A stretch of DNA of 64,000 nt from Amoebophrya sp. A120 (Eukaryota; Protista; Dinoflagellata): positions 9,355,360 through 9,419,359 of the forward strand of contig CAJINV010000004.1 of assembly GCA_905178155.1 (NCBI GenBank), in the 5' to 3' direction. The first letter of the stretch is position 1. Each line of letters begins with the position of its first letter. This document shows, in pieces, positions 6,201 through 61,993 of this stretch. The notes under the pieces were generated by a model. That model saw only the letters and a list, made by a program, of their open reading frames with translations, searched no databases and was not told the origin of the DNA. A program made the translations under genes and the position numbers.

Positions 6201-9200
6201 AATGTCATCGGCGCTAGCATTATGAAATGCAAAAGCATCGTACTAGTATAAATCGCATAACAAATTTCCTCAGCATGGGAAAGAAGATTTGTAATGCGGA
6301 TTTTACCTGAGAAAGAAATTTGTAATGCATGAATGCGATTAGTACGAGTACGATAGTTTTGCACAGGATAAGCATTTTCTACCCACCAAGAAGGAACAAG
6401 CAACATGAGATATCCTGAGTAAAAACGTACCCACACCAGAGTTGTAATGCAAATCTGCATGCTGAAAATGTTTCTCATGCGGAGCTCCATGAGAAGCATT
6501 TTCTAGTCGTGTTTTGCAATTTGTCATGCTCCAATCAGCATGGTCTGCTAGATCTGTGATGCTGCTGAGCTAGCTCAAACAGCACTACACTACGAATCCA
6601 AATTTGTCATGCAAAACGGCCAAAACTTGTGGATTTGTCTAGCCGATTCCCCATCTTGACTCTGGTGTGGGTACGTTTTTACTCAGGACATGAGAAGTTT
6701 GTGAGAAAGGATGAGCAATACCAACACGAAGAATCCGAACATTGGAGGGGACAGTTGCGCAATTCTCAAAATTCGAGCAAGCTTTTTTCTTCCGCGAAAA
6801 TGTTTTCCTCTTCCTCTCCGAAACCTTCCAGAGCGAATATCCTGTGCAAAAGTATCGTACTCGTAGTAATCGCAGTCATGCATTACAGATCTCCCTCTTA
6901 ATCTAAATCCGCATTACGAAATCCATTTTTCATGCTGATGGAATTTGTCATGCGATTTATACTAGTACGATGCTTTTGCATTGCATAGCGAAAACTGATA
7001 GCCAAGTCGAAGTGGTGCGGGGTTCGAGTTTGCGGCGCGATGAACAAGAAGAACGGCAAGGAGATGAAGGAGCCCGGCGATCTGCAACGGCTGCTGCAGC
7101 TGCTGCGAAGAAGCAGGTGAGTATCACCAGCAGTGAAAGACAAAGAAGGCTGATTAAAACCTCTGCTAACGAGGACATCACCGTCGACATTCCGCCACCG
7201 GAGGGCTGGGAGAAGATGCGAATGACAGTGTCTCCGCCAAGGGCTTTGCAAGTGAGCAGTGACACCAGCGAACGGGTGGAAATTGCCGGAGCAGCAGCTG
7301 CGCCGAAAAGCTCGTCGCAGCCAGTCGCTACACCCAAAGACTTCGGTCTAGAAGAGTCTTACCTTTCAGAAGACGGTTTCGGTTCGAATCTGACGCCGGA
7401 GGAAAAGAAAGAGAAACGGTTACTCGCCTCCGCCAAGCGTCACCTGCAGCGAAAGAAAACGCAGGACCCCGAGCGGTTCGGCGAGGTAGATATTCGGGAT
7501 GGCCCGAACGACAATTTTCCCGTGATCAAGCCCGCCCGGCCGCAGAGCGACAAGATCAAAGAGTTGCTTAGCAAGTTTGAAGCCAGCCCGGAAGGAGAGC
7601 AGTACGATATGAATGCCAGTCTTCGTGGCGACAGTCTTGGGAGCAGTCCTTCTGCAGTTCTAGCAGAGAAGCTACGCTCTTCTATGGGTGGTGGTGACAA
7701 AGACAAAGACAGCGCTGGCAGAGGGAAATCTCCTTCTTCGTTTCACAACTCAGTGCACAGGAAGTCCATTGAGGAGGTGATGGCGAAAACGGCGAAGCTG
7801 TCGCAGGACAGAGCGGCATCGCGGTCCTTATCACCCACACCGATTCTCGGACAGCATCACGCGTCTCAGGAAAAATGGCGAAGGTCAATCGACAGCGGCA
7901 AATGGAGGTCGCAGTCGTCGCAACAACAAAGTAGTTTTGGAGCACCAGGCTCTTTTGGGCAGTACAACTATCCTCGTAGTGTTGCGAGCGGTACAGGCTC
8001 AGAGGCGTACAAAAATAGTAGTCTCGATTTCCGCGGCAGCGGATCAGTACAAAGATCAAACAAAAGCAGCGGCAATTTCGAGGGCAGTAGGGCGGCGGAT
8101 TCCACAAGCAGTCTCGCAAAGCTTCCTGTCACGGATGCGGGGCACTACGTCAAGGAAGAGGCGGATAATTCAGCTGACGGCGTGCCGAAGTGGGTGCAAA
8201 AAGAGCGTGACGAGCACAGCGTCTTGCAGCGGAATCACGAGTCCATCGAGCGCTTGACGAGACAGAGCAGCAGAGAGCCCCGGGACAGTAGTACTACTAC
8301 GCCAGGGCTGCAAGGACAGAAACAGTCTCCAGCAGCGGAGGGTCCCGCTGTAGTTGCACAACCTTTGCCACCGGGGCCGGGGCGGTCGACCCCGCCACCC
8401 GTAAGCGGTCTCTCGGATCCGGAGAAGGAACAGTCTCAGTCGTTTGAACAAACAGGGTCGATCTCGATAGGTGGTGGTCCGCGTGCAGAAGGGTCAGCGA
8501 AGGCGTCGTCAGCTTCTTCCCCAGTCGTGCCCGAACAAAGTGGACACGACGATGTTCTTGATGAGGGAGAGAGCAGCGCGGTGTACCTAGAGCCGACGGA
8601 TTCCGATGTGCACCAGGAAGTTGAAACCGGTTCTGCAAAAACATCAGCTGGTGCTGCACCAGCAGGTGCTAGCACTGGCATTGCAAAATCCGCCCCAGAA
8701 GATGCGGCGCCAGCAGCACGGTCAGCCGATCTTGCTAAAACGGAAAGGGCAAAATCTCCGGAGGACGGCCACTACACATTAGATCAGACGGCGTCTTCAT
8801 CCTCCTCTTCGTCCGGCAGCGGGTCTAGCAGTAGTTCTTCGGGGAGCGATTCCGCGTCCAAATCTTCGTCGAATTTGAATAACAGGAAAGCTGGAGATCA
8901 TGAGAACAAACTGTACTATCCGAGCCCGGAGCACAGCTCCTCGGAGCCCACGGTGAGTAAAGTTTCGAGCCGTGTTGATGACACAGCACTTGGTGCACAT
9001 GGAGTCGACGTGAGGGCGGGAGAAAAAAATCCTGAAGCAGCCGCAATCGCCAGTTGTGAAGAAAGAAACGCCGCGCAGATAAAGCAGTCGAGGGACAAGA
9101 ACAATTTTTCGTTTTTCCCTGAAAACCCTCCGGAGGGAGGAGCAACTGATTCCCGACAGCAACGCAGTCCTGGTAAAAATGTTGCTGGTGAAAATGTTAG

Positions 9201-12200
9201 TAACCAGTCCTCTCGGTCACAGTCGTGGTTGAAGCGAGTCTTGAAGGGACCACCTGGAGGTACTAGTGTTAAAAGCCCCCGCGGCGGCCAGCTCCAGCAC
9301 GCACAGCAGGAGGGGGAGGCGATGGAGGTGGTTCCGCGACACCCGAATCCGATCCTGCAGCACCAGTACCACATTCCGCCGTACGCGATGCTCTTTCACG
9401 GCAAGATGCAAATGGCACGGCGTCAGGCGAAAAGGGAACAAGTCAAGTCACCCCTTTTGGTGGACACCACGAAGAATCTGGATGAAATGCATGAAAAAGC
9501 GACTGGAATGAAAATTCAAGAAACTTCTACCAGAGACGAGGACCAATCTCCCGGTTGGCGACAGCGGTTGGCAAATAAGTTCGATGGTAGGAAGCCGACT
9601 GAAGCAGACGCTGCTCGTCGCGCAGATCCAAATCACAAATACAGCATGACTGTTGCTAATCGGGAATTTGTTTTCGGAAAGGACGGGCACGGATTTAAGC
9701 CGAAGTCCCAAGACTCCGAGGGAGGTTCGGCAGGAGAAAGAAGAACACGGATCCCGCGGTCGCGCGTAGACCCGGAGGGGTTGAAGTCGCAGATAACCGA
9801 CGCAAGCAACAAAGCCAGCCGCTTGGAGGAAGAAGCAGAGGCAGACCCGATCGAGATCGAGCGCAGCGAGGAAGAAGCGGAAGGAGAAGACGAGGGTCAG
9901 AATGTGAAGTGGCAAAAAGACCGCAAGTCCGGGAAGTGGATACCCGCACTATCAAATGTAAAAATGTCTGGGTCTGGAAGATTGCAACTTGTCGCGCTGT
10001 TTTTGGATTCCACAAAAATTAGTATTGCATGACCAGCAAGTAGAGGGGTGCTCTGTGTGCTACACGGACAGGGCATTTCTCATGCGAAAGGTGCATTAGG
10101 AAGCCCTCTAAAAATATGCGATGCTAGGTCATGCATTAGAGGCATCATGGGTCATGAGAAATATGCATGACAAATCTTGCATTCTTCCAGACCCAGACAT
10201 TTTTGCATTTGATGCGCATTACCAGGTGACATCTTCCCGCAGGAAGACCTGGATTCCAACACGTTCGCAGACGGCTCGCAGCGCGAATTTCGAGGCTTCT
10301 CGCTGGGTTCCACCTCGCGGAACTCGAAGGAGGGAGTTGTTGTCACGTTGGCCAAGTCCGGCCCCGTGGGAAGTGTACATTTAGTGACGTCGGATACTAG
10401 TTTAGACCCAAGGAGGGACAGCCAGGGCGAAGTTGTAGCCGAAGGGACGACCGGAAAAAATGCTTCTTCGTCTCTCCGCGGTAGTGCGGCGGAACAAGCT
10501 GGACTTTTGCAGGACGTGATGCCTCAGAAAAACACCGCGATACGGTTCACGAACCAGTACAGCGAAAACGGTGACGATGGAATTGTAGACGAAGAAGACG
10601 AGGAAAACAATGAAAATTCCGCCCAAACTGCAATCGAGAATCAACTTGTTCCGGACACAAGCGCATTTGAAGATGAGAATCAAGACGACGATACCCCCGC
10701 AAACGCCCCGCGAGGGAGAACCAGCGCACTAGGAGACGAAGTAGTAAAACGCAGTTCCCGCTGGAAGGAAGCGAGCACAAAAAGACCCACAATTCCGGAC
10801 CCCGCGGCGGATGAGCTTCGTCGTGGCAGTGCCGCGGATAAAGATCGCCCTCCTGGTGCGCCAACGGGCGGTGACCGATTGAGCAACAGCAGGAAGTCTT
10901 CCGTTTCTGAGACGCGCAACTCAATGCGCCGGGAAGAGATCAAGCAGGGCATCCAGAACGTGCTCCGCGCCAGCTCGAAGGGGGGCGACGCGAAAGCGTT
11001 GTTTCGGGATTTGCGATCCAGCTACATCTACAAGGGCGGTAACGATGTCGAGGAAAAGGTGATGAATTCGGAATACGAGTTTCAGCCAGAAGACGAAGCG
11101 AGCCAACAGAGCGGAGGTGCATCAAGTAACGGTCTACTTGAGAACCGTACAACTATGCAACCCGCCAGTGGAAAAAGCAAAGTGAAGTCGAAAGGTCTGT
11201 CTCCTGAATCTTCTTCCGCGCAGGAGTTCGCTTCTCACCCGCCGGTCGTGATCCGTGCGACCCGAGCGTCTTCTCTTCGCGACAACTTCCTCTCCTCCGA
11301 ACTCGAAACCAGACCGGACAGCGTGAAAACTTCCCTTCACGAAGAACATTTCCACTGGTTCGTGGGGAATCAGGAACGGAAAAAACAAAAGTCGCCCTAC
11401 GCGTATCATTATGCATTGCAAAAGTATCGTACTAGTGGTAGTATGAATTGCGTCACAAATTCTACATCTACTCTCAAGTACAAAAGTGCATTACAATTTG
11501 TCATGCTACTTCGGGTAGAAAGTTGGGCTTGGGTTTGTAATGTATGACTGCAATCATTACGTACAAGTATGGTATTTTTGCAGTGCATCTCCACCCCCAG
11601 ACGAAGAAGATGCACCAGTACGACGAGTTTTACCGGCATTATTCACAGAAAAAAACCCATCCACATCCAATTTGTCATGCAAAACCCGTATCAAATCATG
11701 TGTTTGTCATGCAAAAAACGGATGTGGATGAGTTTTTTTCTGTGCATACTCATAGTGGCGGTCACATCCTCCACCAGGAAGCGGGGTATTATTACCACAA
11801 GAACGTGGGCGATTCTGGGGTGCTTTTTTCCCCTCGGCGCGGGAGGTCGCCACCGCTATCAAATGTAGAAATGTCTGGGTCTGGAAACTTGTGATGCTGG
11901 GTGGCGTCTCATGATGAGGCCACAAATGCTGGCTCAACATGACAAGTTTCTGAGCTTCTAGGTGTTGCCTATTCTGCATGGCAAACTGCGTTTCTGCATC
12001 ACAGAAAAATGGAGTTCTTGGGTAACGTGCATGACAGGTTTGAGAGTCATGCCAGACAAGCATGACAAACATGCATTCTTCCACCAGACCCAGACATTTT
12101 TGCATTTGATAACCGCCGAAAAGCGACAACTCGGTTCTGAGTAAGGACAACTGGTCTCGGGCGCACGAAACCTTCTACGACGGGGGAAAGGAGCATCAGA

Positions 12201-14104
12201 ACCAACCCTGGAACAAAAGCACGAACGTGTACGGGTCGCTGCACAAGTTTTCCCGGGGGAAAAACAGTCCAAAGACTTTCGCACCGGACTACGTTGTGGC
12301 GAAAGTGGAAAAGAATCTGGAAGAGGAACGGGAGACGGCTATGTTGAGGGAGCAAATGAAGAGCATGATGCTGAAATCTACTTCGGGTAAGGATGATATA
12401 AACGAAGCCGGCTTTCTCGGTAGGGATTCTGCTGCGAAAAGTACAACAGAAGGTGCACTGGGGAGTGTCGGAAATGATGTTCAACATAATGCTGACGGCA
12501 ATGTTGAATTTGAAAAACAGAGGACGGCAAAAGGAACAAAAGGGAACGCAGCCACAACGAAAGCCGTCAACATCAAAGCTCCTTCAAACAAGACTCCGAT
12601 CATATCCCCTTTGAACGACAAAAACTTTACCTTCATCCCGCCGCAACGAACTGAAAAAGACAACCCAGTGCTGGAAAACCCGCCGAGGCTAACGAAACGG
12701 AACGTGAAAACGGGTATTGGCTTCACCGGCGGTATATGGATCGCAAAAATGTCTGGGTCTGGAAGGATGCGAACGCGTGATGCGCATTTCGCAACACGGA
12801 CAGATCTCTCATGCATAGGCAGCAAAAGGTGCCCACTTCCTGTCACCAGAATGGGGGATTTGTCATGCGGATTAAGCAATGCAGAAGCTTCTCGAAATCT
12901 GTGATGCTAGGGCTTCCATGACAGACATTTGGTGTCATGCAAAAACAGCATGACAAAAATCTGCATTCTTCCAGACCCAGACATTTTTACATTTGATACG
13001 GTATCGATATTCACCATTCGCCCGCTTCCAGCAAACGAACCGCGTCACCCCCGGACAAGGAAAAAGTCGTCAGCGCGTCGCCGCCGCACACGTTTTCCGG
13101 GCTTCCGGTGCTGAGGGCAAAGAAGAAAAAGCCGCAGCTGCAGGCACGAAGCAGTATGAAATTTCAGGACTTTGACCACAATTTGCGGAAGCAGGTGAGT
13201 ACCCCTTTGACCGATGAGAAGTTAAGACGGATTGCTGCCTCTTTACCGACGACTCCAATCAACAAACCGAAACTGAAACGCGGCAAGAGCCCTGCTCGCC
13301 CTGTCGCCGTGCAGACCGACTACTCCATGTCGCCGCGGTCCGTGATGATGCGCACGCAGTGGGAGAATTTGGGCGGCATGGACCTGCCCCCGGAGAAAGT
13401 GCTCCCGTTTGATAGAACCGCGTCCATGTTTATCGGCGCAAGGATGATGGAAGCGATGAAACATTACAACGCTGGTGGAGAAGATGGCTCAAGTAGACCG
13501 ACAGAAATCTACACGTCCCAGAGGTTTCTGAAAGGCGCGGCGGGGCCGTCGCCAACGCACATCGCACCGGCGGCCTTCGGGAGGATGAGTCAGAAGCCGC
13601 TGGAGGGGAGGAAGATTATTGAGAGGAGCGAAAATGACGAAGTAGAGAAGGTGCAGGAGTTGGCGAGGATTACGATGCTGGAAAAGGCTCTGCTAGAGAA
13701 GGGGGAGAAGGATAGAGAAGCCGCAAGACTGACCAGCCCATTGTCGTCGGGGCTGCAGCAGCAGCCGACCTCGTTCGCCGACCAAGTCCGCAAGGATAAA
13801 AACGCTGGAGGAGAGCTGCAGGAAAACGAGAAGGCAAAAAAGCCGCCGAAAATCAAGACGGTCTTAGCCCCTTCACATGGCAGAACCTCTGGGGTTAGCG
13901 CGCTGGACGATTTCCTCTCCGACACGAGCGAACGGAGTTTCGGGAAGAAAAGGACCCCCAGGAAGAAACACGTGAAAGCGCCGGCGCACGGCCGGCCGAC
14001 CGGCGTAGACCCCTTTGCGGTATTGGCGGGGGTACCCTCGTCCGGTGGGGGTGGGGAGGGGGAGGCGGCAGAGCATGAGGCCAACCCGTCTCCTGGGCGG
14101 CAAG
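294..14104 (+). CDS. Giant (>3,800 aa in window) charged, low-complexity and coiled-coil protein of unknown function; 5'-partial; may end in exon 15838-16509
   Basis: ORFs 202, 3685, 4581, 6629, 6970, 10348, 11544, 12227 and 13108 join in frame after removing one conventional intron and 9 TIR elements each with one DR copy. Exons ~299-3545, 3732-4520, 4787-6220, 6376-6410, 6696-6837, 6993-9949, 10220-11409, 11595-11639, 11754-11856, 12117-12734, 13004-14104. E/K/Q-rich coiled-coil-like segments; no recognisable domain. Confidence 0.8.
3546..3731 (+). other. Conventional spliceosomal intron (GT-AG; in-frame alternative GC-AG 3541-3711)
   Basis: AG|GTAAG at 3546 and CTACAG| at 3731 join the flanking ORFs in frame. 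AT-rich, with an in-frame stop. Confidence 0.7.
4521..4781. mobile_element. Introner, family A (TCTGGGTCTGGAA TIR), DR GCGAA
   Basis: TATGAACTGCAAATATGTCTGGGTCTGGAA...TTCCAGACCCAGACACTTTTGCACTTGATA; GCGAA at 4516-4520 and 4782-4786. Excision gives ..PVA-K-EVVRL.. Confidence 0.93.
6221..6370. mobile_element. Introner, family B (150 bp), DR AGCAT; opposite orientation to 6838 and 59003
   Basis: TATGAAATGCAAAAGCATCGTACTAGTA...TACGAGTACGATAGTTTTGCACAGGATA. Frame restored (..GAS-I-FYPPR..). Confidence 0.92.
6411..6690. mobile_element. Introner, family C, DR TGAGA
   Basis: TATCCTGAGTAAAAACGTACCCACACCAGAGT...ACTCTGGTGTGGGTACGTTTTTACTCAGGACA, a near-perfect 32-bp TIR. Frame restored (..QHE-K-FVRK..). 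Confidence 0.93.
6838..6987. mobile_element. Introner, family B (150 bp), DR GCGAA
   Basis: TATCCTGTGCAAAAGTATCGTACTCGTA...TACTAGTACGATGCTTTTGCATTGCATA. Frame restored (..SRA-K-TDSQ..). Confidence 0.93.
9950..10214. mobile_element. Introner, family A, DR CGCAC/CGCAT
   Basis: TATCAAATGTAAAAATGTCTGGGTCTGGAAG...CTTCCAGACCCAGACATTTTTGCATTTGATG. Removing 270 nt joins ORF 6970 to ORF 10348. Confidence 0.92.
11410..11589. mobile_element. Introner, family B-like (diverged), degenerate DR ATCAT/TCCAC
   Basis: TATGCATTGCAAAAGTATCGTACTAGT...ACAAGTATGGTATTTTTGCAGTGCATC. Removing the element plus 5 nt gives ..YAYH-PQTKKM.. in frame. Confidence 0.8.
11640..11748. mobile_element. Introner, family D (109 bp), DR GGCAT/CTCAT
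   Basis: TATTCACAGAAAAAAACCCATCCACATCC...GGATGTGGATGAGTTTTTTTCTGTGCATA. The 114-nt removal is frame-neutral. Confidence 0.85.
11857..12111. mobile_element. Introner, family A2, DR ACCGC
   Basis: Family A TIRs; interior nearly the same as 31041 and 49594. Frame restored into ORF 12227. Confidence 0.93.
12735..12998. mobile_element. Introner, family A variant, DR CGGTA
   Basis: TATGGATCGCAAAAATGTCTGGGTCTGGAAG...CTTCCAGACCCAGACATTTTTACATTTGATA. Frame restored into ORF 13108. Confidence 0.92.
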
Positions 14105-14209
14105 GTATACTTGCTTTCTCCTGTAGTGTATTCACAAAAATGCTGTTTCAAAATAAATCTCGTATCAAAATAAATACAGTGATCCAAATTTGTAATAGCT
14201 CTTTTGTGA

Positions 14210-15601
14210 ACCGGACGCGCCCACCGCACTGCCCGCAGTTTTGTTTATGCTCCGCGCTGAACAATCTCGGGGTCCATCACATTAGAGGCCGGGCGGGCCA
14301 TTGTGGCCGCGGCTTGGGCTTGCTCCGTCATGCCTCAACCTGCCTTCAAGGCGGGCCAAGCATGTCGTCTCCACGCCTGGGGCATGCAGTCAGTGGTCGA
14401 CGTACGTTGCTAGTCGCAACTGCGTCGTGGGACGCCGGAACTGCAAGTAGCAGTACGGCGCCCCTGGCGGCCTCGTCCGGTTCCCAAACCGGGCGTGGGA
14501 AAAACGCCAAAGTGGGGGTGCCTTAGTATCCCTGGAGCGGGCGGCCCGTAAACGGGACCCGACCCGGGTAGATCCTCGTGCAGGCCCCGACCTGCCGAGA
14601 AGAATCCCCGGAAGTGCCCGACTGGCACAGGACGTGTGGAAGTCCAACGTAGGCGTCTGACAAACGCCGGCAAAGGCTGACGGGGTCCCCCCTCCCCTCA
14701 CCTGCGCCACTCAGGGTGAGCACAGCTCCCCGAAACCCCATTCCAGTGAGCCCCCACCCGCTCACACCGAGGCGTCTCTCCCTGTTGGAAGGGGAGGGGG
14801 CCTCGCTGTCACTAGAGTCACGCGCTTGGGTTAATCTCAAGATTGCTTCGCGCAACCAGGCGCGTGACTCAAAATTCCACGTGTAAAAGCGCCCCGGGCG
14901 CCGTGCGCCGCACGAAAAAAAGCGGCAAGGTAACGTGGGGCACCTCGCCCCACGGTGTGTGCCGCTCGTAAGAGCGGCTGTGTCTCTCCTCCGCGTAGGA
15001 GAGAAGCGTGGCGCCGACAGGCACCACGCAAGACGCGCGCGCGCACCTCGAGGCCACGATCACGCGTGCGTCTCGAAACGCGCGCGTGCGCCTCGAGGCC
15101 ACGAGGCGCACGAGCACACGCAGTGCGAGGTCACGCGCGCGCGTGCACCTCGAAACCCTGGCCGCGAGGCGGCAGGGGAACGGACTACGAGATGCAGCCG
15201 CACCGTAGTAGCCGCGTGTTCGTTTATGGTTGAAAATCGATCGACAGGACGTTGTGCATCAAGATTCGCTGCCTAAATGTCGGTCGTCGCAAGAAGGCTG
15301 TCGGTCGAGAGGTGACTGAGAATGGACTTTCGTACTTCAGAGACCGTTGCGACACGTACGCGAGCCGTAGAGCCGCAAGGACCTCGACGTCAAAGGATAT
15401 GCGAAAATCGTACAACAGAAGGACGTTCAAAAAATCGTGGGCAGTACAACCCACGCCGATCCCTAGCAGTAAAGTCGTCCAGTAGATACTGATCGATCGT
15501 CGAACGACCATAGACACAAACCGCAGGCAAATAAAATCACATACAGGGCAGGAGCTTAAAGCACATTGCAAACCCACATAGTAGCTAGCACTAGGCACTC
15601 T
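14210..15601. other. GC-rich, structured, repeat-containing block, probably an insertion within a large intron starting at GT 14105; interrupted by the gap
   Basis: Abrupt compositional change; hairpin 14815-14870; imperfect (CG)n-CACCTCGAGGCCACGA repeats ~15030-15160. Confidence 0.45.
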
Positions 15602-15701: not shown

Positions 15702-15837
15702 CTCGGCGATCCTCCTGCCGCTAAGCTCTTAGTTCCGCCATCGATCAAGGTGGGCGCGAGTAAACCAAAACACTAACACGCTAAACACACAGACATCAAC
15801 GAAACGCAGTCGATCCGTTAGTCGATCCATTTAGCAG

Positions 15838-20121: not shown

Positions 20122-22225
20122 ATGAGCCTCGCGGCCGGCGGATCATCCGCATCTTCCACCGCGGTTGCCGCGGTGCCAGCCGCAGCCGGAGGTGCGGCGC
20201 TCTTGTATAACAGCAGCAGCGGCCCAGGAACTACTACATCAAGTTCTTCACCACCATCAAATAGTACATCGCCTGGCACCAGCGGAGGTGGTGGTAGCAG
20301 ACCGTCTTCATCGCCGCCGTCAACATCATCTTCCAGCAGCAATAGCAGCTCTAGCAGTAATACTCTTAAAAGCAACTTCACCGCCACAACGGCCTGGAAC
20401 TTTCTTCCCGGCGCGGCGCACGCCGTCTATGGCGTTCTCAAATGTTACATTCTCAACTGTTACATGATTTGCCATGCAAAATTCGAACCAGAATCGACGC
20501 GATCAAGCTGCTTCGCATGGCAAATTCTCGAAGTGCCAAATAGGCTAAGAATCTGTGCCAAATCTGTCATGCAAAAGGCGCAATCTTTCCCCTTTTAGTT
20601 TTCCCATGCTTGCATCACAAACTCATGTAACAGTTGAGAATGTAACAGTTGAGAACGCCATACCGTCACGTCCATCCTTGTCGGATACCCGTTTGACACG
20701 GTATATGGGAGTGTCAGGATTGAAATCGTCAAAGTTGAGATAGTTTGTGATGCATAAAATGCAGCCCACAAAGTGCCTGTCTTGCAGAATAGGCAAGTGA
20801 GGCAGATTGTAAGCCTGTTGAGGGGTAGAAACTGAACAGCTAAAGTAGCATGACAAAAGGCGTCCTCTTTACCCAAACAGCATGACAAACTGGATTTCGG
20901 TTCTCCCTAAATTTGTGATGCGCCACTTGGAAACTGGGTTACGACTTTCATCCATTTTATGCATTGCAGATTATTTCAACTTTGACGATTTCAATCCTGA
21001 CACACCCATACGGTAAAAACCCGGCTGCAGACCGGGATGTACCACTTGTCGGCTGGCAGCTACAGCCCGGCCAGTTACAGAAGGTATGAAATGCCAGACA
21101 TGCATCACAAATCGGGTTTTCTTCTAGGTGATTCACCATGACAAATTCCAATTCTCAACTTTAGCAGAGTTAGTTGTGTAACTGCAATTTATACCAGCAG
21201 TGCGATGCTTTTCCTTTTTCAATGCATATACCACATCACCTTACAAAACAGTTTCTTCCGTGCCATTGGGCAGAGTTTTCAGCAAGAAGGCCTCTTCTTC
21301 CTCTACCGCGGGTGCGGGGTGCCCATGAGCTCTTTGTTACTGAAACGGCCCTTAGAGTTCTTCGTCTACGAGCGATTGAACGAAACGCAAAACCCCGGGC
21401 ACTACTTCCAAAACGGCGCCTACGCGGCCACCGCGGGGTGCTTGATCGGCTGCCCGTTTAACATTGTGAAGATTCGTGTGCAGAACGCGGCGAAAAAAAC
21501 TGTATTCTTGTCGACGTTTTTCATTTTCCCTTGGCGTAATGGAGGCGAATATGCTATACCACAACTCAATCTCTATTTCGATTGTCTTGTACCAAAAGCG
21601 TCACTTCTGCAAACGCAATGTATACAAATTCCATCTTCAGGTGCGCGACGCCGTCCGTGAAGTGTACCGCGAGGCCCCGTACGGCACCGGCTTCTTCCGC
21701 GGTTTACCGCTCCAGCTTGGCTTCAGCGTTCCATCGGCAAGCATCTACTTGGGTTTGTACGGAAAATTTCGCGAGGCTTTGTTAGTGGAAAACGACGGGC
21801 TGGTTTTGTCGAAGGGGACCGCGGGCGGGATCGCCGGAATAGCGTCCTCCGTGATTATGTGGAGCATACTCATGCCGGTGGACACGCTCAGGACAAAAGT
21901 GCAAGCGGGCGGACTACCGATAGTCGCAGCGGCTGCAAGTAGGGGAACAGCCAGTGGAGGGACCAGTGCTAGTACTGCAAGCAGCGCTGGCTCCGGCTCC
22001 GCAGCGACAACTGCATCAACAGGAGGTGGAGCGACCTCGGCGACCAGGCCTGCAATAGGCATCCTCCAAGCGGCAAAATCCATCTACGAGCAGCGTGGGG
22101 CCCGCGGATTTTGGTCTGGGCTGTTGCCAATGTACTTGCGAGCATTCGCGATTACTGCTCCTGCGATGTTTGCGTATGAGACCGCAAGAGATTGGGTCAA
22201 TACAGCAGGAGGTGGAAGAACATGA
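20122..22225 (+). CDS. Mitochondrial carrier family (SLC25) protein, ~414 aa
   Basis: Exons 20122-20427, 20668-20703, 21016-21083, 21252-21501, 21641-22225. Three carrier signatures (PFDTVKTRLQ, PFNIVKIRVQ, PVDTLRTKVQ), plus EGLFFLYRG, GFFRG and GARGFWSG. Confidence 0.92.
20428..20662. mobile_element. Introner, family E (40-bp TIR), DR CCGTC
   Basis: TATGGCGTTCTCAAATGTTACATTCTCAACTGTTACATGA and its reverse complement (one mismatch). Excision gives GAAHAV-TSILVGYPFDTV. Confidence 0.95.
20704..21010. mobile_element. Introner, family F, DR CGGTA; opposite orientation to 30670 and 33463
   Basis: TATGGGAGTGTCAGGATTGAAATCGTCAAAGTTGA...TCAACTTTGACGATTTCAATCCTGACACACCCATA. Excision rebuilds PFDTV-KTRLQ. 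Confidence 0.95.
21084..21251 (+). other. GT-AG intron (alternative in-frame acceptor at 21197) containing a candidate decayed introner at 21085-21193
   Basis: AG|GTATGAAATGC...AAAACAG|TTTC gives YRS-FFRAIGQSFQQEG. Confidence 0.7.
21502..21640 (+). other. GT-AG intron
   Basis: ACT|GTATTC...CTTCAG|GTG joins NAAKKT to VRDAVREVYRE in frame. Confidence 0.8.
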
Positions 22226-22369
22226 AAGCATTCGATGAGTGGGAGAAGTTGCGCCTATCTTATTTATCTCTATGTCATTGTCATTGAGAATTTCTTTGAA
22301 TACTAAGTGAGCGACATTAAAGATTCGGCATTGCCGTTTGTGTGATTTCTGACGTAACTACGTGGCCAA

Positions 22370-39500: not shown

Positions 39501-41693
39501 GAACACAGAAAGCTCGAGAAATACGTGTTTGATGCGAGAAAGGCGAAGCAGCTCCCGGTAAAAGCGACTAAAGCAGACTGCAAGGAAACCGCGCTTTCCC
39601 ACCGCGTCACCGCGTTGGAGAAAATCTTTTCCTGGTGCATCGAGCTGTGTCACGAGCTGCCTCCACACCCAAATGGCATAGACTGGAAGGACGAAAAACG
39701 GGTCATGCCCATCACCAAGTCGGCGGTACAGGCGGAGACGCACAAGCAGTGCAAGCAGTGGGCGACGTGGTGGCCGAGCCTGACCGCTTACTCGGACATT
39801 CACTACCAGTACCGTGAAGCGGACCTGCTCACGGGGTGGTCCGACACCTTTCAAATGGTGGGCAGCGGGGTCTCCGTGCCGCGCAGCATCATCGTGGTGG
39901 CGGAAAGCGGGAAGGCGTACAAGCTGCTGGTCAAGGGCGACGACGATGCCCGACAAGACTGCATTTTCGAGCAGATTTTCATGCATTTGAAGTCCGTCGC
40001 CGGAAGAGCCGCGCCGGGGGGCGGGGGAAAAACCAACAAAAACGTGTTCGAGCACCTGGTCACCTACAAAGTGATACCGCTCGCACCGCAACAGGCCGTG
40101 ATAGAGTGGGTCGACCCAACAATGCCCGTCGGAAGTTGGCTGCAGGTATTGCTTCAGTTTATTGTCAGAAGTTGTTAGTTTAGTTGAGCAACACGTATTT
40201 TTATTTCAATTGCAGCTCATGGCCATGGATATTTCATAAAGATGAGCATGGAACACCAAAAAGTTTTCGTCCAAATTTTTCAACAAAGAAACCCTCGATT
40301 CCGAAGAAGAAAATGCATTCGAACAACAGGACGCTGGCGGCGGGCATGCGCGCTATAATCCACAGGATTGGGCAAATGCCCGATGTCGCGCGGTCATGAA
40401 CGAAGGCCACTTTACGGGTTTTGTGCAAGACCCGGCCTTGCGAGACAAGAAAATCGCGGCGTTCAGGAAGTGTTGCGAGAACTTCCAGCCCGCGCTATTG
40501 TGAGGAAAAATCCCCCCTCCCCATATCGAAAAGATACGTCGCCGAAAATTTGCAATGCTGATTTGCGACCACAAATCATCTCTGTCTTGCAAGAAGGCAA
40601 GTCCACAGGCTCCGCCGCATTCTGCAGGCGGTTTGTGATGCTGTTGGGCCTACAGCGCAGACGTTTCTCATGCTAAGAGCCTAGCCCAAGACCTCTCTAC
40701 TCAGGCTTAGTATGGACCTGCAGTCCTCTCCAGCAAGACAAATCCGATTTGTGTACGCAAATCCAGCATCACAGACTTCGTTTTGATGTGGGGTGGGGGC
40801 TTTTTTCACTTTGATACGCGCTGAAGTACTTCTTTCTCGAGAAATTTGGGCACAACGCGGTCAAACACCACGAGGCGCTGTATCAAGTGTAAAAATGTCT
40901 GGGTCTGGAAGATTCTGAGATTTGTCATGCATGTTTTACATGACCTAGGATGTCTGTAATGCGCGACCTGACATCACAGATTTTTAGAGTGCTTGCTGAT
41001 GCCTACTCCGCATGACAAACGCCCTCCCCGCGTAGCGCAACCTAGACTCCTCTTGCTGGTCATGCAATACAGATTTTTTTAGATGAGTCCAAAGCTAGCG
41101 TCACAAGTTCCATCCTCCCAGACCCAGACATTTTTACAGTTGATACGCTGACGGCGTATGCGAAATCGTTGGCGGTGACCTCGATGGTCGGGTATGTTCT
41201 GGGCGTGGGCGACCGGCACGTGAACAACATCATGATGAATTTGAAAACCGGCGAGATCCTCCACATCGACTTTGGCATGGTCTTTGACTTTGCGAAAAAT
41301 CTCCCCGTTCCCGAGGAGGTGCCCTTCCGGATGACGCGCGACTTGGTGCACCCGCTCGGGTGGCAGGGGTTGCAGAACGGGGTCTTTCGGAAAGGATGTG
41401 AGTACGCGTTCGAACTGCTGCAGCAGCACGAGGAATTGCTGTTAAACCTGTGCGAAGTCTTTCTCTACGACCCCATCACGCGGTGGAACGCGCGCCAGGA
41501 GTGCGAAACGGCGGCCGGCGGGGAGCAGGCACTGCAGAGCATACGGAGCAAGTTGAGCTTGACCGACTGTCACAGCAAGTCCGGGCTGAGCCAGTTCAAG
41601 GACGTGCCGGCTTTCCTGGACTACTTGTTGACGAAAGCAACGGACCCAGTGAACCAGGCAGTGATGTTTGCCGGGTGGAGCTCGTGGTGTTAG
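24526..41693 (+). CDS. ATM: ATM/Tel1-like PI3K-related protein kinase, ~5,115 aa
   Basis: Exons 24526-30669, 30981-31040, 31302-33462, 33782-37555, 37705-40145, 40330-40495, 40822-40880, 41151-41693 (15,348 nt, in frame). Motifs LVKGDDDARQD, TYKVIPL, IEWV, HARYNPQDW..CENFQPALKYFFLEKF (ATM-type), VGYVLGVGDRHVNNI, HIDFG, PEEVPFRMTRD, and FATC ATDPVNQAVMFAGWSSWC. Confidence 0.88.
30670..30975. mobile_element. Introner, family F, DR AGACT/AGACC
   Basis: TATGGAAGTGTCAGAATCGAAATTGACAAAATCGAAAAATTTG...CAAATTTTTCGATTTTGTCGATTTCGATTCTGACGCTTCCATA. Frame restored. Confidence 0.93.
31041..31296. mobile_element. Introner, family A2, DR CCTTG/TCTTG
   Basis: Family A TIRs. Excision gives SFQSL-PAKLKD. 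Confidence 0.92.
33463..33776. mobile_element. Introner, family F, DR TGCGG
   Basis: TATGGGAGTGTCAGGATTGAAATC...GATTTCGATTCTGACACTTTCATA; interior similar to 30670. Excision gives TTA-G-CFEPL. Confidence 0.93.
37556..37699. mobile_element. Introner, family D-like, DR CAAGA
   Basis: TATCCGCAAAAAACAACCATCC...GGATGGTTGTTTTTTTGTGGATA. Excision gives EWQYK-T-GKTQDG. Confidence 0.92.
40146..40329 (+). other. GT-AG intron in the kinase domain
   Basis: CAG|GTATTG...CAACAG|GAC gives GSWLQ-DAGGGHARY. Confidence 0.85.
40496..40816. mobile_element. Introner, family G, DR CGCGC
   Basis: TATTGTGAGGAAAAATCCCCCTCCCCATATC...GATGTGGGGTGGGGGCTTTTTTCACTTTGATA. Excision gives NFQPA-L-KYFFLEKF. Confidence 0.92.
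40881..41145. mobile_element. Introner, family A, DR CGCTG; opposite orientation to 4521, 9950 and 61298
   Basis: Family A TIRs; interior matches the reverse complement of 61298. Excision gives HHEAL-TAYAKSLAVTSM. Confidence 0.94.
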
Positions 41694-49146: not shown

Positions 49147-50352
49147 ATGTCGTTCTGCAGTTCTTGTCCATGCTTCGCCAGCAGCGAAGGAGACGACGAG
49201 AACACCTCCGCCACGGATTTAAAGCAAGTTGTCGTCGATAAGAAAAAAAAGAAGACAACATCTCAGAACCGCAAAAAGTCGACCGACAGTGCAGGAGATG
49301 CCGACCAGTCGGAAGCCGCGCCGCTATTGAAGAACGACAGCAAGAAACGGGACAGCAAGGGGACCACGACGTCGTCGACCAAGGGGGAAGGCAAGAATAA
49401 ACGGTCCTCCAGACCATCAAAAGGCAAGGGCAAGGACCAGCCCCCCGATGAAGAACCAGAGGACATCAACGACGAGAGCAACGCAGACACGACAAAAAGA
49501 GCCTCTCGCACTTCGTCTTCCGCCAAAACAGCTACACGGTCGTCGAAGAACGACCGCAGGAGCAGCAGAAAGAAATCGCAAGACGAAGCGGAGTATCAAA
49601 TGCAAAAATGTCTGGGTCTGGAAACTTGTGATGCTGGGTGGCGTATCATGGGGAGGCCACAAGTGCTGGGTCAGCATGACAAGTTTCTGAGCTTCTAGGT
49701 GTTGCCTACCCTGCATGACAGACTGCGTTTCTGCATGACAGATCAATGGGGCCCTTAGGTAACGTGCATGACAGATTTAAGAGCCATGCCAGACATGCAT
49801 GACAAACATGCACTCTTCCAGACCCAGACATATTTGCAATCCATACGGAGTACTATGGTGCAACAGAAGAACAGGGAGAGCAAAACGGCAGCGCGGGCAC
49901 TACTTCTGCGAAGTTGACGAAACACGAAGGATCTTTTTCCGGAAATGACGAGGAAGGCTGGGACAAGGAGGGGCACGACAAGGAGTACAGTGCGGAGAAC
50001 AAGAAGGGCGACGAGGATGACTGGGAGGAAGAAGATGATGAATCCTGGCCGGCCTGGACCCTGCGTTATCCAATGTCAAATCTTAATCTAAATCTTTTTC
50101 ACCACCACGAGTACGGCCCTCAATTTGTAAGAATGCAGATTTTCAATGCTCTGTCTATCACCACCTAAGCCTAGTAAGGCTAACATGTGCGCATTACAAA
50201 TTGAGGGTGGACATCGAGGAGACCAACATGGTGGTGATTTTACACTGCATATGCGGCGGCAAGCCACCTTGGCACGGGACAAGAGCCTGAAAAAGATAAA
50301 GCGGCAGGAGACGGCTTTGCAAAACGCGTTCGCGAAAATTATGGAGGACTAG
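49147..50352 (+). CDS. Hypothetical charged protein (~252 aa) with a Cys-rich N-terminus
   Basis: Exons 49147-49593, 49851-50066 and 50257-50352 join in frame after removal of two introners; starts MSFCSSCPC. Confidence 0.75.
49594..49845. mobile_element. Introner, family A2, DR CGGAG
   Basis: TATCAAATGCAAAAATGTCTGGGTCTGGAA...TTCCAGACCCAGACATATTTGCAATCCATA. Frame restored. Confidence 0.93.
50067..50251. mobile_element. Introner, family H (diverged TIR), DR TGCGT/TGCGG
   Basis: TATCCAATGTCAAATC...GATTTTACACTGCATA; GCATTACAAA at 50191. Excision gives WTLR-RQATL in frame. Confidence 0.75.
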
Positions 50353-58545: not shown

Positions 58546-61500
58546 ATGCCACCACTCAGCTGCTGCCACGACCGAGGGCCGGACTTATCCGAGACCACCT
58601 TCAGGAGCACAGCTCCGTGTAATTCGTCATCTTCGCCCAGCTCTACTAGTTCGTCGAGCAGTGCGAAAGCAAGATATCGACATGGAGAAATGAGGTTTCG
58701 AGCAAGAAGAACCCCCGCCGTTTTAGGTGCAGCAGCCTGTTGGACAACCGCACTCCTTCCCAACATCCAGGAAATCTTGTTTCAGGCAAATTTGAATTTC
58801 CACCAAAATCTTGTCGCCGCAAAGCAGCACAGGAGCACAAGGAAGAGCAGCGAGCACCACCAACAGGGACGAGAAAAGCAAGAGTCTCTCCTCGATGCTG
58901 CGTTAAGCTCCGTGAAGAAGAGCGCAGAAGACCTTCTCCACTGGCGCGGCGAGGGACAAAACTTTCGAGTACACAAAAAAATGATCGTCAAAGTGAAGAA
59001 GCTATCCTGTGCAAAAGTATCGTACTCGTAGTAATTGCAATCATGCATGACAAATTGCCCATCTTAGGCAAATCAGCATTACAAATTGCACTTTTCTCTT
59101 TGAAAAAATTTGTAATGCAATCTATACTAGTACGATACTTTTGTAATGCATAGAAGCGGAAGAGGAGCAAAAAACGGAGTGGTGCAAGAACCGCCGCGGC
59201 TGGTCGAAAATCATCATCCTCTTCCACCTCTGCCGGCAGAGTCTACTCGTCCACCTCGAGTAGTAGTAGAAGTGGCCGATTGCAAGATGGGCATCGTCAA
59301 GATGAACGCCAGCAGCTTCGAAAGATGAACAAGAAACAGAGAAGGAAAGCCGCGAAAGGAGCTGCTGCAGCAGCAGCAGCAACAGCTGCTGCACAGATGA
59401 GAGGTCTTCAGAAGAAGACCTTGAGAAGCGAAAAACTACTAGTACGCGAAGACGAGAAAGATGGTAGTGGGAGTGAAGAGGAGATTCCGGATGAAGAAGT
59501 AGACAAAATGATGAACGAGAATAGCGAAACATTGCATCCGGACGAGCCCGTGGGGCTGGACGCCACGACAAGCACAACGAGCACTTCCACGACAAGCACA
59601 AGCACGACTTCTACTACGACGACGAAAGCCGGAACGTCTACAGGAAGTTTTTCTGGCGCGTCAATCCGGATGCCGGGCCCTGCCCCTGCGCCAGCTCCGA
59701 CCTCCTCGTCTTTGGTGCAGCACGATTGGGACGATGGGGACAACTCGACCGAAGCACCGCAAAGGACCACTGCAGGAGCAGTACAAATACAAGACGCGGA
59801 TGACACAAACTCGACAACGATGTCGCCCCCAAAGGATGCTGCTGGACAACATCAAGGAAGCTCCTCGTCAGCCTACCTCACAACCGCACAAAATAACGTC
59901 TTCCACAACCTGACCAACCGGAGCAGCGAGCAGATTGGCGAGTCCATCAGCACAACATCAAGTTCTACTACTTCCACAACCGCTGCGACAACGACGACAT
60001 TAGCTGGCGGCGATTTTTACACGCCTGAGGCGATGGTGCTGGCAAGGAATAATAAGGCGGGTGACGATGAAGACGATGAAATAAATCGGACACAATCCTA
60101 CCTGCAGAAGCAAGACGTGGTGATTCGCCGGAGGATTCCGGTGAGTCAATACGGGCAGAACAACCTCCAAGGGGCTCCTGTGGCGGGTGGACAGCAAGTG
60201 CTGCAAGCAGGTGCAGGGCCAAGCTATCCGCAGCCGGCGCTAGTAGTGCAAGGAGGTAATGGCTACGCTGCGCAGCCACCGCCGGCGCTATACGAAGATC
60301 CGCAGTTTCTCGCAACGGCCTCAGACGGGCAGCAGTTGGTGCAGTCGAACCTCCTCCAGGGAACAGTGAATGGCATGGTCAAAAATGATGTTGTCCCGCA
60401 GCAAAATAATCAAGTCCCGCAAGAACAGCAGCAGCTACAATCCCGTCAGCGTGTTTTCGCCACGGTGAGTACTACCGGAACGCCAAATGGACCGCAGATT
60501 CAAGTCCCGCAAATGTACAACAACCCAACGACAACTAAGCAGTTTGCAATCAACCAAGACGGATTGGAAGATGAGGAACAGCTTGACGACTGGCCAGCAA
60601 CTACGAACAGCTACGAAGAGGATGGGGAGTACGAGGACAGCTACGATAGCGGGGAGGACGATTACGATTCCGGTGAAGACGCAGCTTATCTAGAAGAGCA
60701 AGGCGATGACAGCGACGAAGACGATAGCACGAATAGTACCACGACGGGGTTTGTCGACACGAACACGTTTCGGGAAGAATGTACTTGTGTTTTTCTCGAC
60801 TTTTTTCGGAAGTGAAAAATGGCCATGGCGATTAAGAAGTTGTACGGAACTTCCGGTATCGCTTTTCGAAGCGGCCTCACCGAGATGAGAAATAAAAAAT
60901 CGTGCATGATGCGCATGCCATATTACCCATTCTTGATTTGGAATCACAACATACAACAGGTGATGCCGCGACACTGGTGGCCGCCTGGAAAGCTTGTGGG
61001 ATCAAGGACAGTTCGCTGAAAGATTACAAAGCGGGCGAAAACACCAGCGATTTGGTGTGGGAAGTGAAACAAAGTACTGCTACTGTGTTGAAAAAGTCTG
61101 CTCAGATGATTTGCGATTCTGCCAAACCATTTTGACGTGCTCGGAGTCCATTGTGATGCCAAGCACACTTTCCTTCTGCAGCCCTAATATTTCTGAATCC
61201 AAAAGAAAAAACACATTCTTATCAAATACAGCCCACCTCTGCAACACCATCTGCATGTTGGCCTCCGAGATCTGCGCAGACCTCACCGGCCTAGCCGTAT
61301 CAAATGTAAAAATGTCTGGGTCTGGAAGAATGCAACTTGTGATGCTCATGCTGCATTTGGATGTCTAAAACTAAAAAATTTGTGTTGCATGAGCAGCAAA
61401 AGGAATCTAATTTCTGCTACGCGGAGAGGGCATTTGTCATGCAGAATAGGCATCAAGAACCCCTCAAAAAACCTGTGATGCTAGGTCATGCATCACAGAG

Positions 61501-61993
61501 ACCACGGCTCATGCAAATCGTGCATCACAAGTCTCAGAACCTTCCAGACCCAGACATTTTTACACTTGAGAAGCCGCCCGGCGGTACGACGAAGTTACCT
61601 GCTCGCGTTACTGGAACCGGGTGTCGGAGGAATCCATAGTGGTCACGGAAACCAACGACTATCGAATAAAAGAGTGTTAACTTTAACGGTTTTCACAGAT
61701 GGCAGTCATGCATTACAAATTTTGCCTTCCGTGCATGGTACGCAATACAAATTTGCGCGCCTCTTCAGATGCATCCCTGCATCACAAATTCCGTTAACGT
61801 TAGCACTTTTTCTTGTGATAGCGACGCGTCGTCCAAAGCCATGTTCTTCGGGTGGAGACTGCAGCTGCTGTTCACCTTTGTGTTCCTGCTGTTTTCGGTC
61901 AGCGGCTTCGGGGATCATGATCATGGAGGGTTCCTCGGTACTACAGCAGCCTCGTCGGTCGGAAGGAGCAGGCAAGTGCAGGGGGTGTGGTGA
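58546..61993 (+). CDS. Putative secreted/membrane mucin-like protein with a Cys-containing C-terminal domain and hydrophobic tail (~836 aa; start may be 58690)
   Basis: Exons 58546-59002, 59158-60780, 60960-61073, 61232-61297, 61577-61659, 61826-61993 are in frame (3 introners; GT-AG introns 60781-60959 and 61074-61231). Thr/Ser runs; tail LQLLFTFVFLLFSV. Confidence 0.75.
59003..59152. mobile_element. Introner, family B (150 bp), DR GAAGC
   Basis: TATCCTGTGCAAAAGTATCGTACTCGTAGTAAT...TATACTAGTACGATACTTTTGTAATGCATA. Frame restored. Confidence 0.93.
61298..61571. mobile_element. Introner, family A, DR AGCCG
   Basis: Family A TIRs (right end ...TTGAGA). Excision gives TGLA-A-RRYDEV. Confidence 0.92.
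61660..61820. mobile_element. Introner, family J, DR ACGAC/GCGAC
   Basis: TATCGAATAAAAGAGTGTTAACTTTAACGG...CCGTTAACGTTAGCACTTTTTCTTGTGATA. Excision gives ETND-ASSKAM. Confidence 0.88.

Follow-up and report, generated by a model that had tools for sequence, protein, structure and literature searches.

The window analysed here, a 64-kb stretch of the Amoebophrya sp. A120 genome, carries plus-strand genes interrupted by short elements that begin with TAT, end with ATA and measure 144 to 321 nt. The elements have terminal inverted repeats (TIRs) of ~25 to 75 nt per arm, contain no open reading frame and are flanked by a 5-bp target duplication (TSD), which is exact in 14 of 19 elements, matches at 4 of 5 positions in four and at 2 of 5 in one. 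They combine the features by which MITEs (non-autonomous TIR DNA transposons) are recognized, namely TIRs, a fixed-length TSD, multiple copies and no coding capacity. A strict scan for TAT..ATA ends with an arm and a TSD returned 9 elements in the window versus 0 in each of 20 shuffles, and a repeat search together with interior alignments across the 64 kb shows that A, B and F are genuine repeat families. Each of the ten coordinates named in the first-pass annotation is the start of an element. This class has already been published as the introner elements of Amoebophrya sp. A120, and the point on orientation made below is a modest addition to it.

The unrelated families A, B, D1, I and J share a TAT followed by 7 nt and an A-run, together with the mirror image of this arrangement, and K does so approximately; F and H start with TAT without an A-run after it. 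The mirror of the A-run is a U-run that lies 10 to 14 nt before the element's 3' end. In addition, TTGTNATGC occurs 52 times versus 2.27 expected and is present in all families. The elements are as follows (window coordinates and strand, with a point where no strand is given).

4521..4781, +, A copy in the majority orientation, 261 nt, TSD GCGAA/GCGAA, gene 1
6221..6370, -, B copy, reversed, 150 nt, TSD AGCAT/AGCAT, gene 1
6411..6691,., single-copy element G, 3' end decayed (ACA for ATA), 8-nt direct repeat ACATGAGA at a spacing of 285 nt
6838..6987, +, B copy, forward, 150 nt, TSD GCGAA/GCGAA, same gene as 6221
9950..10214, +, A copy, forward, 265 nt, imperfect TSD CGCAC/CGCAT
11410..11589,., B-like element (B3), decayed, TSD 2 of 5
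11857..12111, -, D1 (subfamily of A), 255 nt, TSD ACCGC, interior weakly matching the A 40881 orientation
12735..12998, +, A copy, forward, 264 nt, TSD CGGTA
20428..20662,., element H, 235 nt, TSD CCGTC, mitochondrial-carrier gene
20704..21010, -, F copy, reversed, 307 nt, TSD CGGTA, splitting the first carrier signature
30670..30975, +, F copy, forward, 306 nt, TSD AGACT/AGACC
31041..31296, -, D1 copy, 256 nt, TSD CCTTG/TCTTG
33463..33776, +, F copy, forward, 314 nt, TSD TGCGG
37556..37699,., TAT..ATA element, 144 nt, TSD CAAGA
40496..40816,., TAT..ATA element, 321 nt, TSD CGCGC, PIKK kinase gene
40881..41145, -, A copy, reversed, 265 nt, TSD CGCTG, inside the PI3/PI4-kinase domain
49594..49845, -, D1 copy, 252 nt, TSD CGGAG
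50067..50251,., TAT..ATA element, 185 nt, imperfect TSD TGCGT/TGCGG
59003..59152, +, B copy, forward, 150 nt, TSD GAAGC
61298..61571, +, A copy, forward, 274 nt, TSD AGCCG, 3' end decayed to AGA

Two of the host genes resemble known families.

20200..22346, +, mitochondrial-carrier gene, poly(A) tail after 22346, downstream exons matching Mito_carr
38754..41690, +, 3' part of a PIKK-type kinase gene, exons 38754-40142, 40327-40490, 40817-40875 and 41146-41690

The exon after A 40881 matches positions 128 to 240 of the PI3_PI4_kinase profile, and FATC. Slightly more than 20 kb separates F 20704 from A 40881, the copies that interrupt these two genes. Five large exons of three host genes matched no family in a Pfam search, and an Rfam search of the whole window gave 0 matches, with no snRNA or spliced-leader gene here. 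As the first-pass annotation had claimed, the host genes are all on the plus strand and the junctions restore frame: a single open plus-strand frame runs across each of the ten named copies once the element and 5 nt are taken out, and retention of any element brings stops into all frames. With its element junctions, including those of 6221, 6411 and 6838, gene 1 reads through 1920 codons with 0 stops, and excision of A 4521 leaves an open frame that extends 857 nt upstream and 1462 nt downstream. Once 30670, 31041 and 33463 are out, 0 stops remain over 5709 nt of the gene that carries F 30670 and F 33463; excision of B 59003 gives 0 stops in 2148 nt, and that of A 61298 an open frame over 587 nt. 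In the carrier gene, excision of F 20704 (312 nt) rebuilds the carrier signature ...LVGYPFDTV/KTRLQTG (junction at the slash); with H 20428 also out, the signature is restored and the frame stays open.

Inverted copies within families

Alignment of family members, the check proposed alongside the original claim, confirmed inversion in all three families, with A 40881 reversed relative to 4521, 9950 and 61298, B 6221 relative to 6838 and 59003, and F 20704 relative to 30670 and 33463. Inverted matches cross the interiors of A (40867-41079 versus 61373-61585, 213 nt, 80%) and F (20744-20936 versus 30744-30936, 193 nt, 76%; F 20704 versus 33538-33729, 192 nt, 75%), and in B extend over the whole element (6221-6370 versus 6838-6987, 150 nt, 84%). 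With 45 nt cut from each end before scoring, interiors of A 40881 and 4521, 9950, 12735 and 61298 aligned as reverse complements at 58, 86, 43 and 86 versus 3, 7, -4 and 4 in the forward sense. The corresponding scores were 109 and 96 versus 17 and 14 for F 20704 against 30670 and 33463, and 26 and 20 versus -6 and 0 for B 6221 against 6838 and 59003. The reverse-complement score was matched by 0 of 300 shuffles in each of the six pairs tested. Interiors scored -8 to 24 against their own reverse complements; they are not self-palindromic and their orientation is therefore meaningful. The proposal that the reversed copies are unrelated or palindromic was rejected on these interior scores and shuffles.

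A reversed copy could also have arisen without insertion the other way round, if the two long arms of one element recombined with each other and flipped the interior alone; the removal mechanism would be unchanged. The F arms point this way, as their asymmetry (5' TTGTGATGC versus 3' GCATTGCA, G.U/U.G on the plus strand) is the same in 20704 as in 30670 and is not mirrored; this is, however, one tandem site in copies that are ~25% diverged. In B 6221, by contrast, the asymmetric terminal positions 4 to 7 and the G.U positions 7 and 16 invert along with the interior, and the end variants of A 40881 correspond to those found at the other end in related copies, making an interior flip quite improbable.

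Absence from transcripts and position of the cuts

Transcript contigs were taken from runs X3 to X6, whose classification as RNA is only a guess, and DNA contigs from run X1. The X3 to X6 contigs are RNA-like in that a GT..AG intron is skipped and 3 of 30 bins are uncovered, and X1 covers 30 of 30 bins at a depth of ~42 to 57 in unique bins. Transcript contigs lack exactly the element plus 5 nt at B 6221, B 6838, A 9950, A 12735 and A 40881. Both B 6221 and B 6838 are gone from a single X3 contig (record 9), in which 176 nt bridge 6215 to 6987, equal to the loss of 155, 285 and 155 nt for 6221, 6411 and 6838; the 285-nt removal of G 6411 is drawn from this arithmetic and the open frame. Across the reversed A 40881, record 24 of the X6 contigs passes straight from 40875 to 41146, a skip of 270 nt that slides by 5, and also skips the GT..AG intron from 40142 to 40327. 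At the forward A copies, 9944 abuts 10215 (skip 270 nt, 0 other letters) and 12729 is joined to 12999 (skip 269 nt). Further joints connect 40490 to 40817 (element 40496, skip 326 nt), 49588 to 49846 (D1 49594, skip 257 nt, in X4, X5 and X6) and 50061 to 50252 (element 50067, skip 190 nt, sliding by only 4, in X3 to X6). Contig pieces begin at 4782 after A 4521 and restart at 12112 after D1 11857, and B3 11410 lies inside a 705-nt stretch spanned by 146 nt of transcript contig, for which the arithmetic fits intron sizes of 179 and 120 nt or of 185 and 114 nt. Among the joints listed, none falls at F 20704, F 30670, F 33463, B 59003 and A 61298, and no transcript contig covers the gene that carries F 30670 and F 33463; raw RNA runs X9 and X10, which bear the same species label, have 5 and 187 reads over 20 kb, at a repeat and at the carrier gene's 3' end, and thus yield no information on splicing.

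The claim that removal is independent of orientation is upheld by the reversed and forward B copies missing from one transcript, by the skipping of the reversed A 40881 and by the motif rebuilt on excision of the reversed F 20704. Removal regardless of orientation thus has direct or strong support, for A and B from transcript contigs, which show the presence of joints and not splicing efficiency per orientation, and for F from the restored PFDTV/KTRLQ.

Since the classification of X3 to X6 as RNA was guessed, the element-free contigs might in principle represent rearranged DNA from which elements had been excised like ciliate internal eliminated sequences, a process that the TA-containing ends and precise, scarless loss resemble. 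However, X1 contigs (records 1 to 5) pass from unique exon into elements at a flank depth of ~44, so that elements are not missing from expressed DNA as in ciliates; a GT..AG intron is missing from the element-free contigs too, and their cover is patchy like that of transcripts; the published introns were defined from RNA-seq (Farhat 2021). DNA-level excision is largely refuted and can be given almost no credence.

The element borders are non-canonical, with no cut position in any register giving GY..AG in any of the elements (0 of 19). Imperfect TSDs locate the cuts more closely at 9950 and 50067, where the last base of the downstream copy is kept in 2 of 2 informative cases: the joint at A 9950 keeps the downstream T, meaning that the base immediately 5' of TAT goes with the element, and at 50067 the T just 5' of TAT is lost from the transcript. 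As the cut falls in a variable 5-nt TSD, there is no fixed splice-site sequence. The hairpin base may be the reference point from which the cuts are measured; their offsets would then add up to 5 nt, and the 5' cut would lie beyond the element by at least 1 nt.

Location of the removal signal

In all 16 elements folded, the first base is predicted to pair with the last on both strands (z -5.4 to -15), the sense strand being more stable than the antisense in 10 of 16, too even a split to be informative. The terminal stem of family A is almost invariant (two-sided change in 4 of 41 predicted pairs, covariation term +2.7), which renders covariation uninformative on pairing, and because transposases also require matching ends, complementary arms are no proof of RNA pairing. 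Arm positions 7 and 16 are A.C in B 6221 where B 6838 has G.U, and removal of B 6221 despite A.C indicates that a perfect stem is not needed. On the transcribed strand, arm mismatches comprise 28 G.U versus 10 A.C, a count in which inherited mismatches are not collapsed.

The first-pass annotation had reasoned that a strand-specific internal branch point or polypyrimidine tract could not be the sole signal and that the information must be symmetric. This logic is sound, but it excludes only signals in the asymmetric interior: the mirrored terminal part includes the U-run, so that a near-terminal pyrimidine tract or branch site could still act. With TIRs this long, both ends of the RNA (the first and last tens of bases) are the same in either orientation, and orientation independence is therefore an expected corollary that does not separate a hairpin from a linear end motif.

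The explanation we favour as a whole, and consider reasonably probable, is that of introner elements in both orientations whose removal is guided by their symmetric ends and performed by a spliceosome independent of GT..AG. Miniature transposon-like introner elements would sit in plus-strand genes in both orientations, and the mRNA would lose the element together with one copy of the 5-bp target duplication. Removal is likely to be guided solely by the mirror-image terminal part, which may fold into the predicted hairpin and draw the two exon ends together, and the cutting is likely to be the work of a spliceosome, assumed here, without need for GT..AG. What is read would then be the hairpin and not a linear motif at the ends.

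A spliceosome that reads linear motifs within the terminal repeats, with RNA structure irrelevant, would also treat both orientations alike, since the candidate motifs (5' UAU, the U-run before the terminal AUA, perhaps TTGTNATGC) are mirrored. The TAT and A-run arrangement common to unrelated families, the excess of TTGTNATGC in all of them and the removal of B 6221 with its A.C mismatches are in keeping with this, yet we think it rather unlikely: excision of F and H, which have no A-run, restores the carrier signature and open frame, the cut lies in the variable TSD, and, according to Farhat 2021, A25 elements start with TTA and many singleton introns share only an inverted and a direct repeat.

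Alternatively, removal could be non-spliceosomal, with a hairpin endonuclease whose cuts lie a fixed distance away from the stem base and exons that are then sealed by an RNA ligase, as happens in tRNA or HAC1/XBP1-type splicing. Borders without a splice consensus in any register, the indifference of removal to interior orientation, long near-perfect predicted stems that suit a structure-specific nuclease, and a U1 snRNA not found in the published genomes (Farhat 2021) would all fit such an enzyme. It is nevertheless improbable given ordinary GT..AG introns in the same transcripts and, from Farhat 2021, the presence of nearly all spliceosomal proteins and a repeat organisation shared by 15% of canonical A120 introns, which suggests one machinery; nor was bulge-helix-bulge geometry evident in an informal look at the folds. 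We likewise place little weight on a ruler anchored at a symmetric RNA hairpin's base, in which the 5-nt offset would equal the target stagger of the transposase and a dedicated hairpin-reading endonuclease and ligase, not the spliceosome, would act; if true, any such element would be erased scar-free from any frame in either orientation.

How the cell recognizes the borders of introns without splice-site sequence is posed as an open question by Farhat 2021. Removal in both orientations, loss of exactly one 5-nt duplication and a 5' cut outside the element (two informative cases) narrow where the signal lies and together supply a natural experiment for genome-wide study. For annotation, such genes would be misread by any gene finder that insists on GT-AG borders or on a single orientation for each intron family.

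Comparison with known systems

As described, A120 introners comprise many families of 150 to 300 nt with inverted repeats that start with TAT, 7 variable bases and at least 3 As, direct repeats of 3 to 5 nt across the borders, borders other than GT-AG and a predicted hairpin, in genes arranged in co-oriented blocks (Farhat 2021, BMC Biol 19:1, PMC7789003). TAT-N7-A-run repeats, 5-bp direct repeats, non-GT-AG borders, predicted hairpin, many families of this size and co-oriented gene blocks are all found here too, and there is no structural difference from the window elements. The latter are likewise absent from RNA with non-GT-AG borders, by joints at 9950, 12735, 40496, 40881, 49594 and 50067 and by arithmetic at 6221, 6411 and 6838, and have a predicted end-to-end hairpin in 16 of 16 folds, a 5-nt direct repeat and TAT-N7-A-run ends (F and H without the A-run). 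The same authors propose that the hairpin joins exon boundaries, and report most spliceosomal proteins as present, U1 snRNA as undetected and no transposase as found in A120 (PMC7789003); TIR-flanked integrase-like elements in A120 are described by Gozashti 2025. The main text and one supplement file of Farhat 2021 give orientation only of genes and do not state removal of a family both ways, and we found no statement in the literature of either-orientation removal for non-canonical introners. For canonical introners it has been described in Polarella glacialis and in Aureococcus anophagefferens, according to Roy et al. (10.1101/2020.10.14.339549, citing Huff et al. 2016). Those introners are removed in either orientation, as here, but they use GY-AG sites formed from the element end and TSD, which 0 of 19 window elements have.

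Two further systems are comparable. Nonconventional introns of euglenids have variable borders, and base pairing of the intron ends brings the exons together. They are not known to form multi-copy TIR/TSD families; in their variable borders and end pairing they resemble the window elements, in which the pairing is predicted. The non-canonical introns of Fritillaria borealis are reportedly of transposon and hairpin origin. In that species, as summarized in a review, abundant recently gained introns lack GT-AG and a few canonical ones are kept (Henriet et al. 2019, via PMC11282704). The preferred border dinucleotides given there are AG-AC and AG-AT, whereas in the window the border is whatever the 5-bp target was.

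Anatomy and orientation of the elements

The window (about 50% G+C, with an N-run at 15602-15701) is a run of plus-strand genes densely dotted with short repeats. Nineteen elements of 144-321 nt were delimited, with TAT at the 5' end and ATA or a decayed ATA at the 3' end, and surrounded by a 5-bp direct repeat that is exact in 14, matches at four of five positions in four and at two of five in one. A strict scan (TAT..ATA, a 5-bp repeat and at least 13 of 16 end bases complementary) found nine elements in the window and none in each of 20 shuffles. A long end-to-end hairpin is predicted on either strand for all 16 elements folded, with z-scores of -5.4 to -15 relative to mononucleotide shuffles. 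Judged from sequence, these elements, too short to hold a gene, have the anatomy of non-autonomous terminal-inverted-repeat transposons. Their terminal inverted repeats (arms) measure about 25-37 nt in families A and B and in D1, a three-copy subfamily of A, 39 nt in element H and 34-73 nt in family F. Unrelated families share a 5' end with TAT and, after seven variable bases, an A-run, which is mirrored at the 3' end by a U-run 10-14 nt ahead of the terminal AUA. The word TTGTNATGC (complement GCATNACAA) occurs at 52 sites in the window against 2.27 expected, nearly all inside elements and in the subterminal parts of almost every family. It could be a transposase-binding or splicing signal, and no mention of it was found in the introner literature consulted.

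Example sites of TTGTNATGC
4560-4568
6289-6297
20745-20753
40922-40930

Elsewhere in the window, a tandem repeat at 3-126 (31-nt unit, four copies, 94% matches) adjoins the remnant of a B-like element, which ends at 293. Two stretches rich in G+C (up to 0.62) lie at 14000-15700 and 22000-24000; the former includes the 100-base N-run and a DNA contig whose depth is roughly threefold the usual (152 versus about 45).

The first-pass annotation had placed families A, B and F in both orientations within co-oriented genes, an observation that we confirm. Each of the ten copy positions it named is an element start, the families are real, and the copies starting at 40881 (A), 20704 (F) and 6221 (B) are reversed. 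With 45 nt cut off each element end and the four other A copies as partners, the interior of A 40881 scored 58, 86, 43 and 86 in reverse complement and 3, 7, -4 and 4 forward; corresponding scores were 109 and 96 versus 17 and 14 for F 20704 against the two other F copies, and 26 and 20 versus -6 and 0 for B 6221 against the two other B copies. None of 300 shuffles attained the reverse-complement score (six pairs), so the reversed copies are not unrelated sequences, and the alignments of all three families confirm the reversal by eye too. Self-palindromic interiors were ruled out by comparing interiors with their own reverse complements. The long inverted matches extend through the interiors, beyond the terminal repeats; these interiors (60-220 nt) are orientation-dependent, as are end positions 4-7 in family B, and flipping of the interior as the source of reversed copies is very improbable.

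Copies of subfamily D1
11857-12111
31041-31296
49594-49845

The D1 interiors are 84-90% alike and the ends are as in family A. Reverse complements scored higher in 11 of 12 comparisons with forward A copies, by small margins, and by sequence the D1 copies seem to lie the same way round as A 40881. If family A is taken broadly, its orientations may thus be divided 4:4, the D1 interior match to A 40881 being weak.

Removal from transcripts in both orientations

Transcript joints, kinase and carrier matches and open frames after excision bear out that the host genes lie on the plus strand and that removal restores frame. Removal in both orientations is seen for B in one transcript and for A across contigs, and removal of the reversed F copy is supported by a restored carrier signature. 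Runs X3-X6 were assigned as RNA by presumption, and their contigs behave like transcripts, omitting a canonical intron and leaving the region partly uncovered. The DNA run X1 covers 30 of 30 bins at a depth of 42-57 in unique sequence. Excision of the elements at the DNA level is barely conceivable, since X1 contigs pass from exons into elements and cover their first 25-30 bases.

Contigs of X3 and X6 provide joints or arithmetic for the copies at 6221 (reversed), 6838, 9950 and 40881 (reversed); contig sequence also resumes exactly after A 4521. One X3 contig (record 9, 8393 nt) consists of 4782-6215, 176 nt, 6987-9944, directly 10215-11406, 146 nt, 12112-12729 and directly 12999-14042. The 176 nt are what remains after removing 155 nt (B 6221 plus 5), 285 nt (element G with its repeat) and 155 nt (B 6838 plus 5). 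Across these junctions one frame has no stops in 1920 codons, versus 64 and 85 in the remaining frames; retention of B 6221 introduces stops in all frames. An X6 contig (record 24, 2265 nt) omits three stretches: 40143-40326 (GT..AG), 40491-40816 (326 nt, a further TAT..ATA element) and 40876-41145, whose 270 nt are the reversed A 40881 plus 5 nt. The exon after A 40881 hits FATC and positions 128-240 of the PI3_PI4_kinase profile, and the exon ahead of the canonical intron gives a weak hit to positions 2-60 (E 0.003, below the Pfam cut-off); because exons on both sides match PI3_PI4_kinase, the reversed copy lies within a plus-strand kinase-domain coding stretch.

The reversed F 20704 splits PFDTV/KTRLQ, the first-repeat signature of a mitochondrial carrier, and excising 312 nt rejoins it, on the basis of signature and frame. 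Later exons of this gene match Mito_carr, and raw RNA reads carry a terminal poly(A) tail after 22346 on the plus strand. Support for F 30670, F 33463, B 59003 and A 61298 is from reading frame: retention gives stops in all frames, and removal leaves none in 5709 nt (both F copies), 2148 nt (B 59003) and 587 nt (A 61298). The carrier gene has further interruptions at 21084-21236 (TAT..ATA ends, no recognisable duplication) and at 21500-21640, where the intron ends at 21640 and a contig piece resumes. Elements are packed as densely as two in 600 nt of gene, and some exons are very short (39 nt at 6371-6409, between B 6221 and G; about 36 nt at 20663-20703, between H and F 20704).

Cut position and symmetry of the signal

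A GY..AG pair was found in none of the 19 elements, at any of the six cut positions allowed by the duplication. Identical flanking repeats leave the cut ambiguous in most elements; two imperfect repeats constrain it.

Imperfect flanking repeats
9945-9949 / 10215-10219, CGCAC/CGCAT, element 9950; contig pieces with no other letters between
50062-50066 / 50252-50256, TGCGT/TGCGG, element 50067; joint sliding by 4, four runs

In both, the mRNA retains the final base of the downstream copy, so that the base immediately before TAT goes with the intron, the 5' cut falls outside the element and the 3' cut is at most 4 nt past ATA. In every case the removed length exceeds the element by 5 nt. This excess is the amount required to undo the 5-bp target duplication and no multiple of three; cutting only at the element ends would cause a frameshift.

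As the arms are mirror images, the first and last tens of RNA bases are alike in either orientation. The earlier reading, that orientation-independent removal requires a symmetric signal, is sound in that interior signals are excluded, but a pyrimidine tract or branch site within the 3' arm is possible, because the mirror design supplies both in either orientation. We infer that recognition would probably proceed via the element ends only and, leaning on Farhat 2021 (PMC7789003), that the terminal hairpin would draw the two exon ends together, with cuts positioned relative to the hairpin base, and that the executor would most likely be the spliceosome with relaxed splice-site reading. That study reports most spliceosomal proteins as present and U1 snRNA as undetected, and the same repeat layout in 15% of canonical A120 introns; a non-spliceosomal nuclease plus ligase is a rather improbable executor.

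At arm positions 7 and 16, B 6838 has G.U and B 6221 has A.C, yet B 6221 is removed, which counts against a strict structural requirement. That linear end motifs are what is read is unlikely. Counted on the transcribed strand over the arms of all 19 elements (of which two gave 0-2 arm positions), transition mismatches comprise 28 G.U versus 10 A.C (naive binomial p = 0.005, family copies not being independent). F 20704 keeps G.U on the plus strand, whereas B 6221 turns the G.U of B 6838 into A.C. The G.U excess hints at RNA pairing and is a lead only, as mismatches are shared within families and a transcription-linked mutation bias could mimic it.

Comparison with known introners

The element class itself is already described: the anatomy agrees point for point with that reported for introner elements of Amoebophrya sp. 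A120 (Farhat 2021; PMC7789003), namely repeats beginning TAT followed by seven less conserved bases and three or more As, direct repeats 3-5 nt long (5 bp according to an example figure legend), non-canonical borders, co-oriented gene blocks and a hairpin proposed to link exon boundaries. By this match the window probably belongs to that strain or a near relative. In its main text and one supplement file, 'orientation' is applied to genes only and 'lariat' is absent. Our literature search found no statement of both-orientation removal for non-canonical Amoebophrya elements, which is not proof of absence. A 2022 introner survey used a method admitting opposite-orientation insertions, and a 2025 survey (Gozashti 2025) required 5'-with-5' alignment. 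Orientation independence is almost automatic given such long mirror-image ends; of use beyond it are the removal of both B orientations in one transcript, the cut position constrained by imperfect duplications and the subterminal word common to families. Introners of Polarella likewise form introns in either orientation, with GY-AG derived from element end and target duplication (10.1101/2020.10.14.339549), and the same is reported, by citation therein, for Aureococcus.
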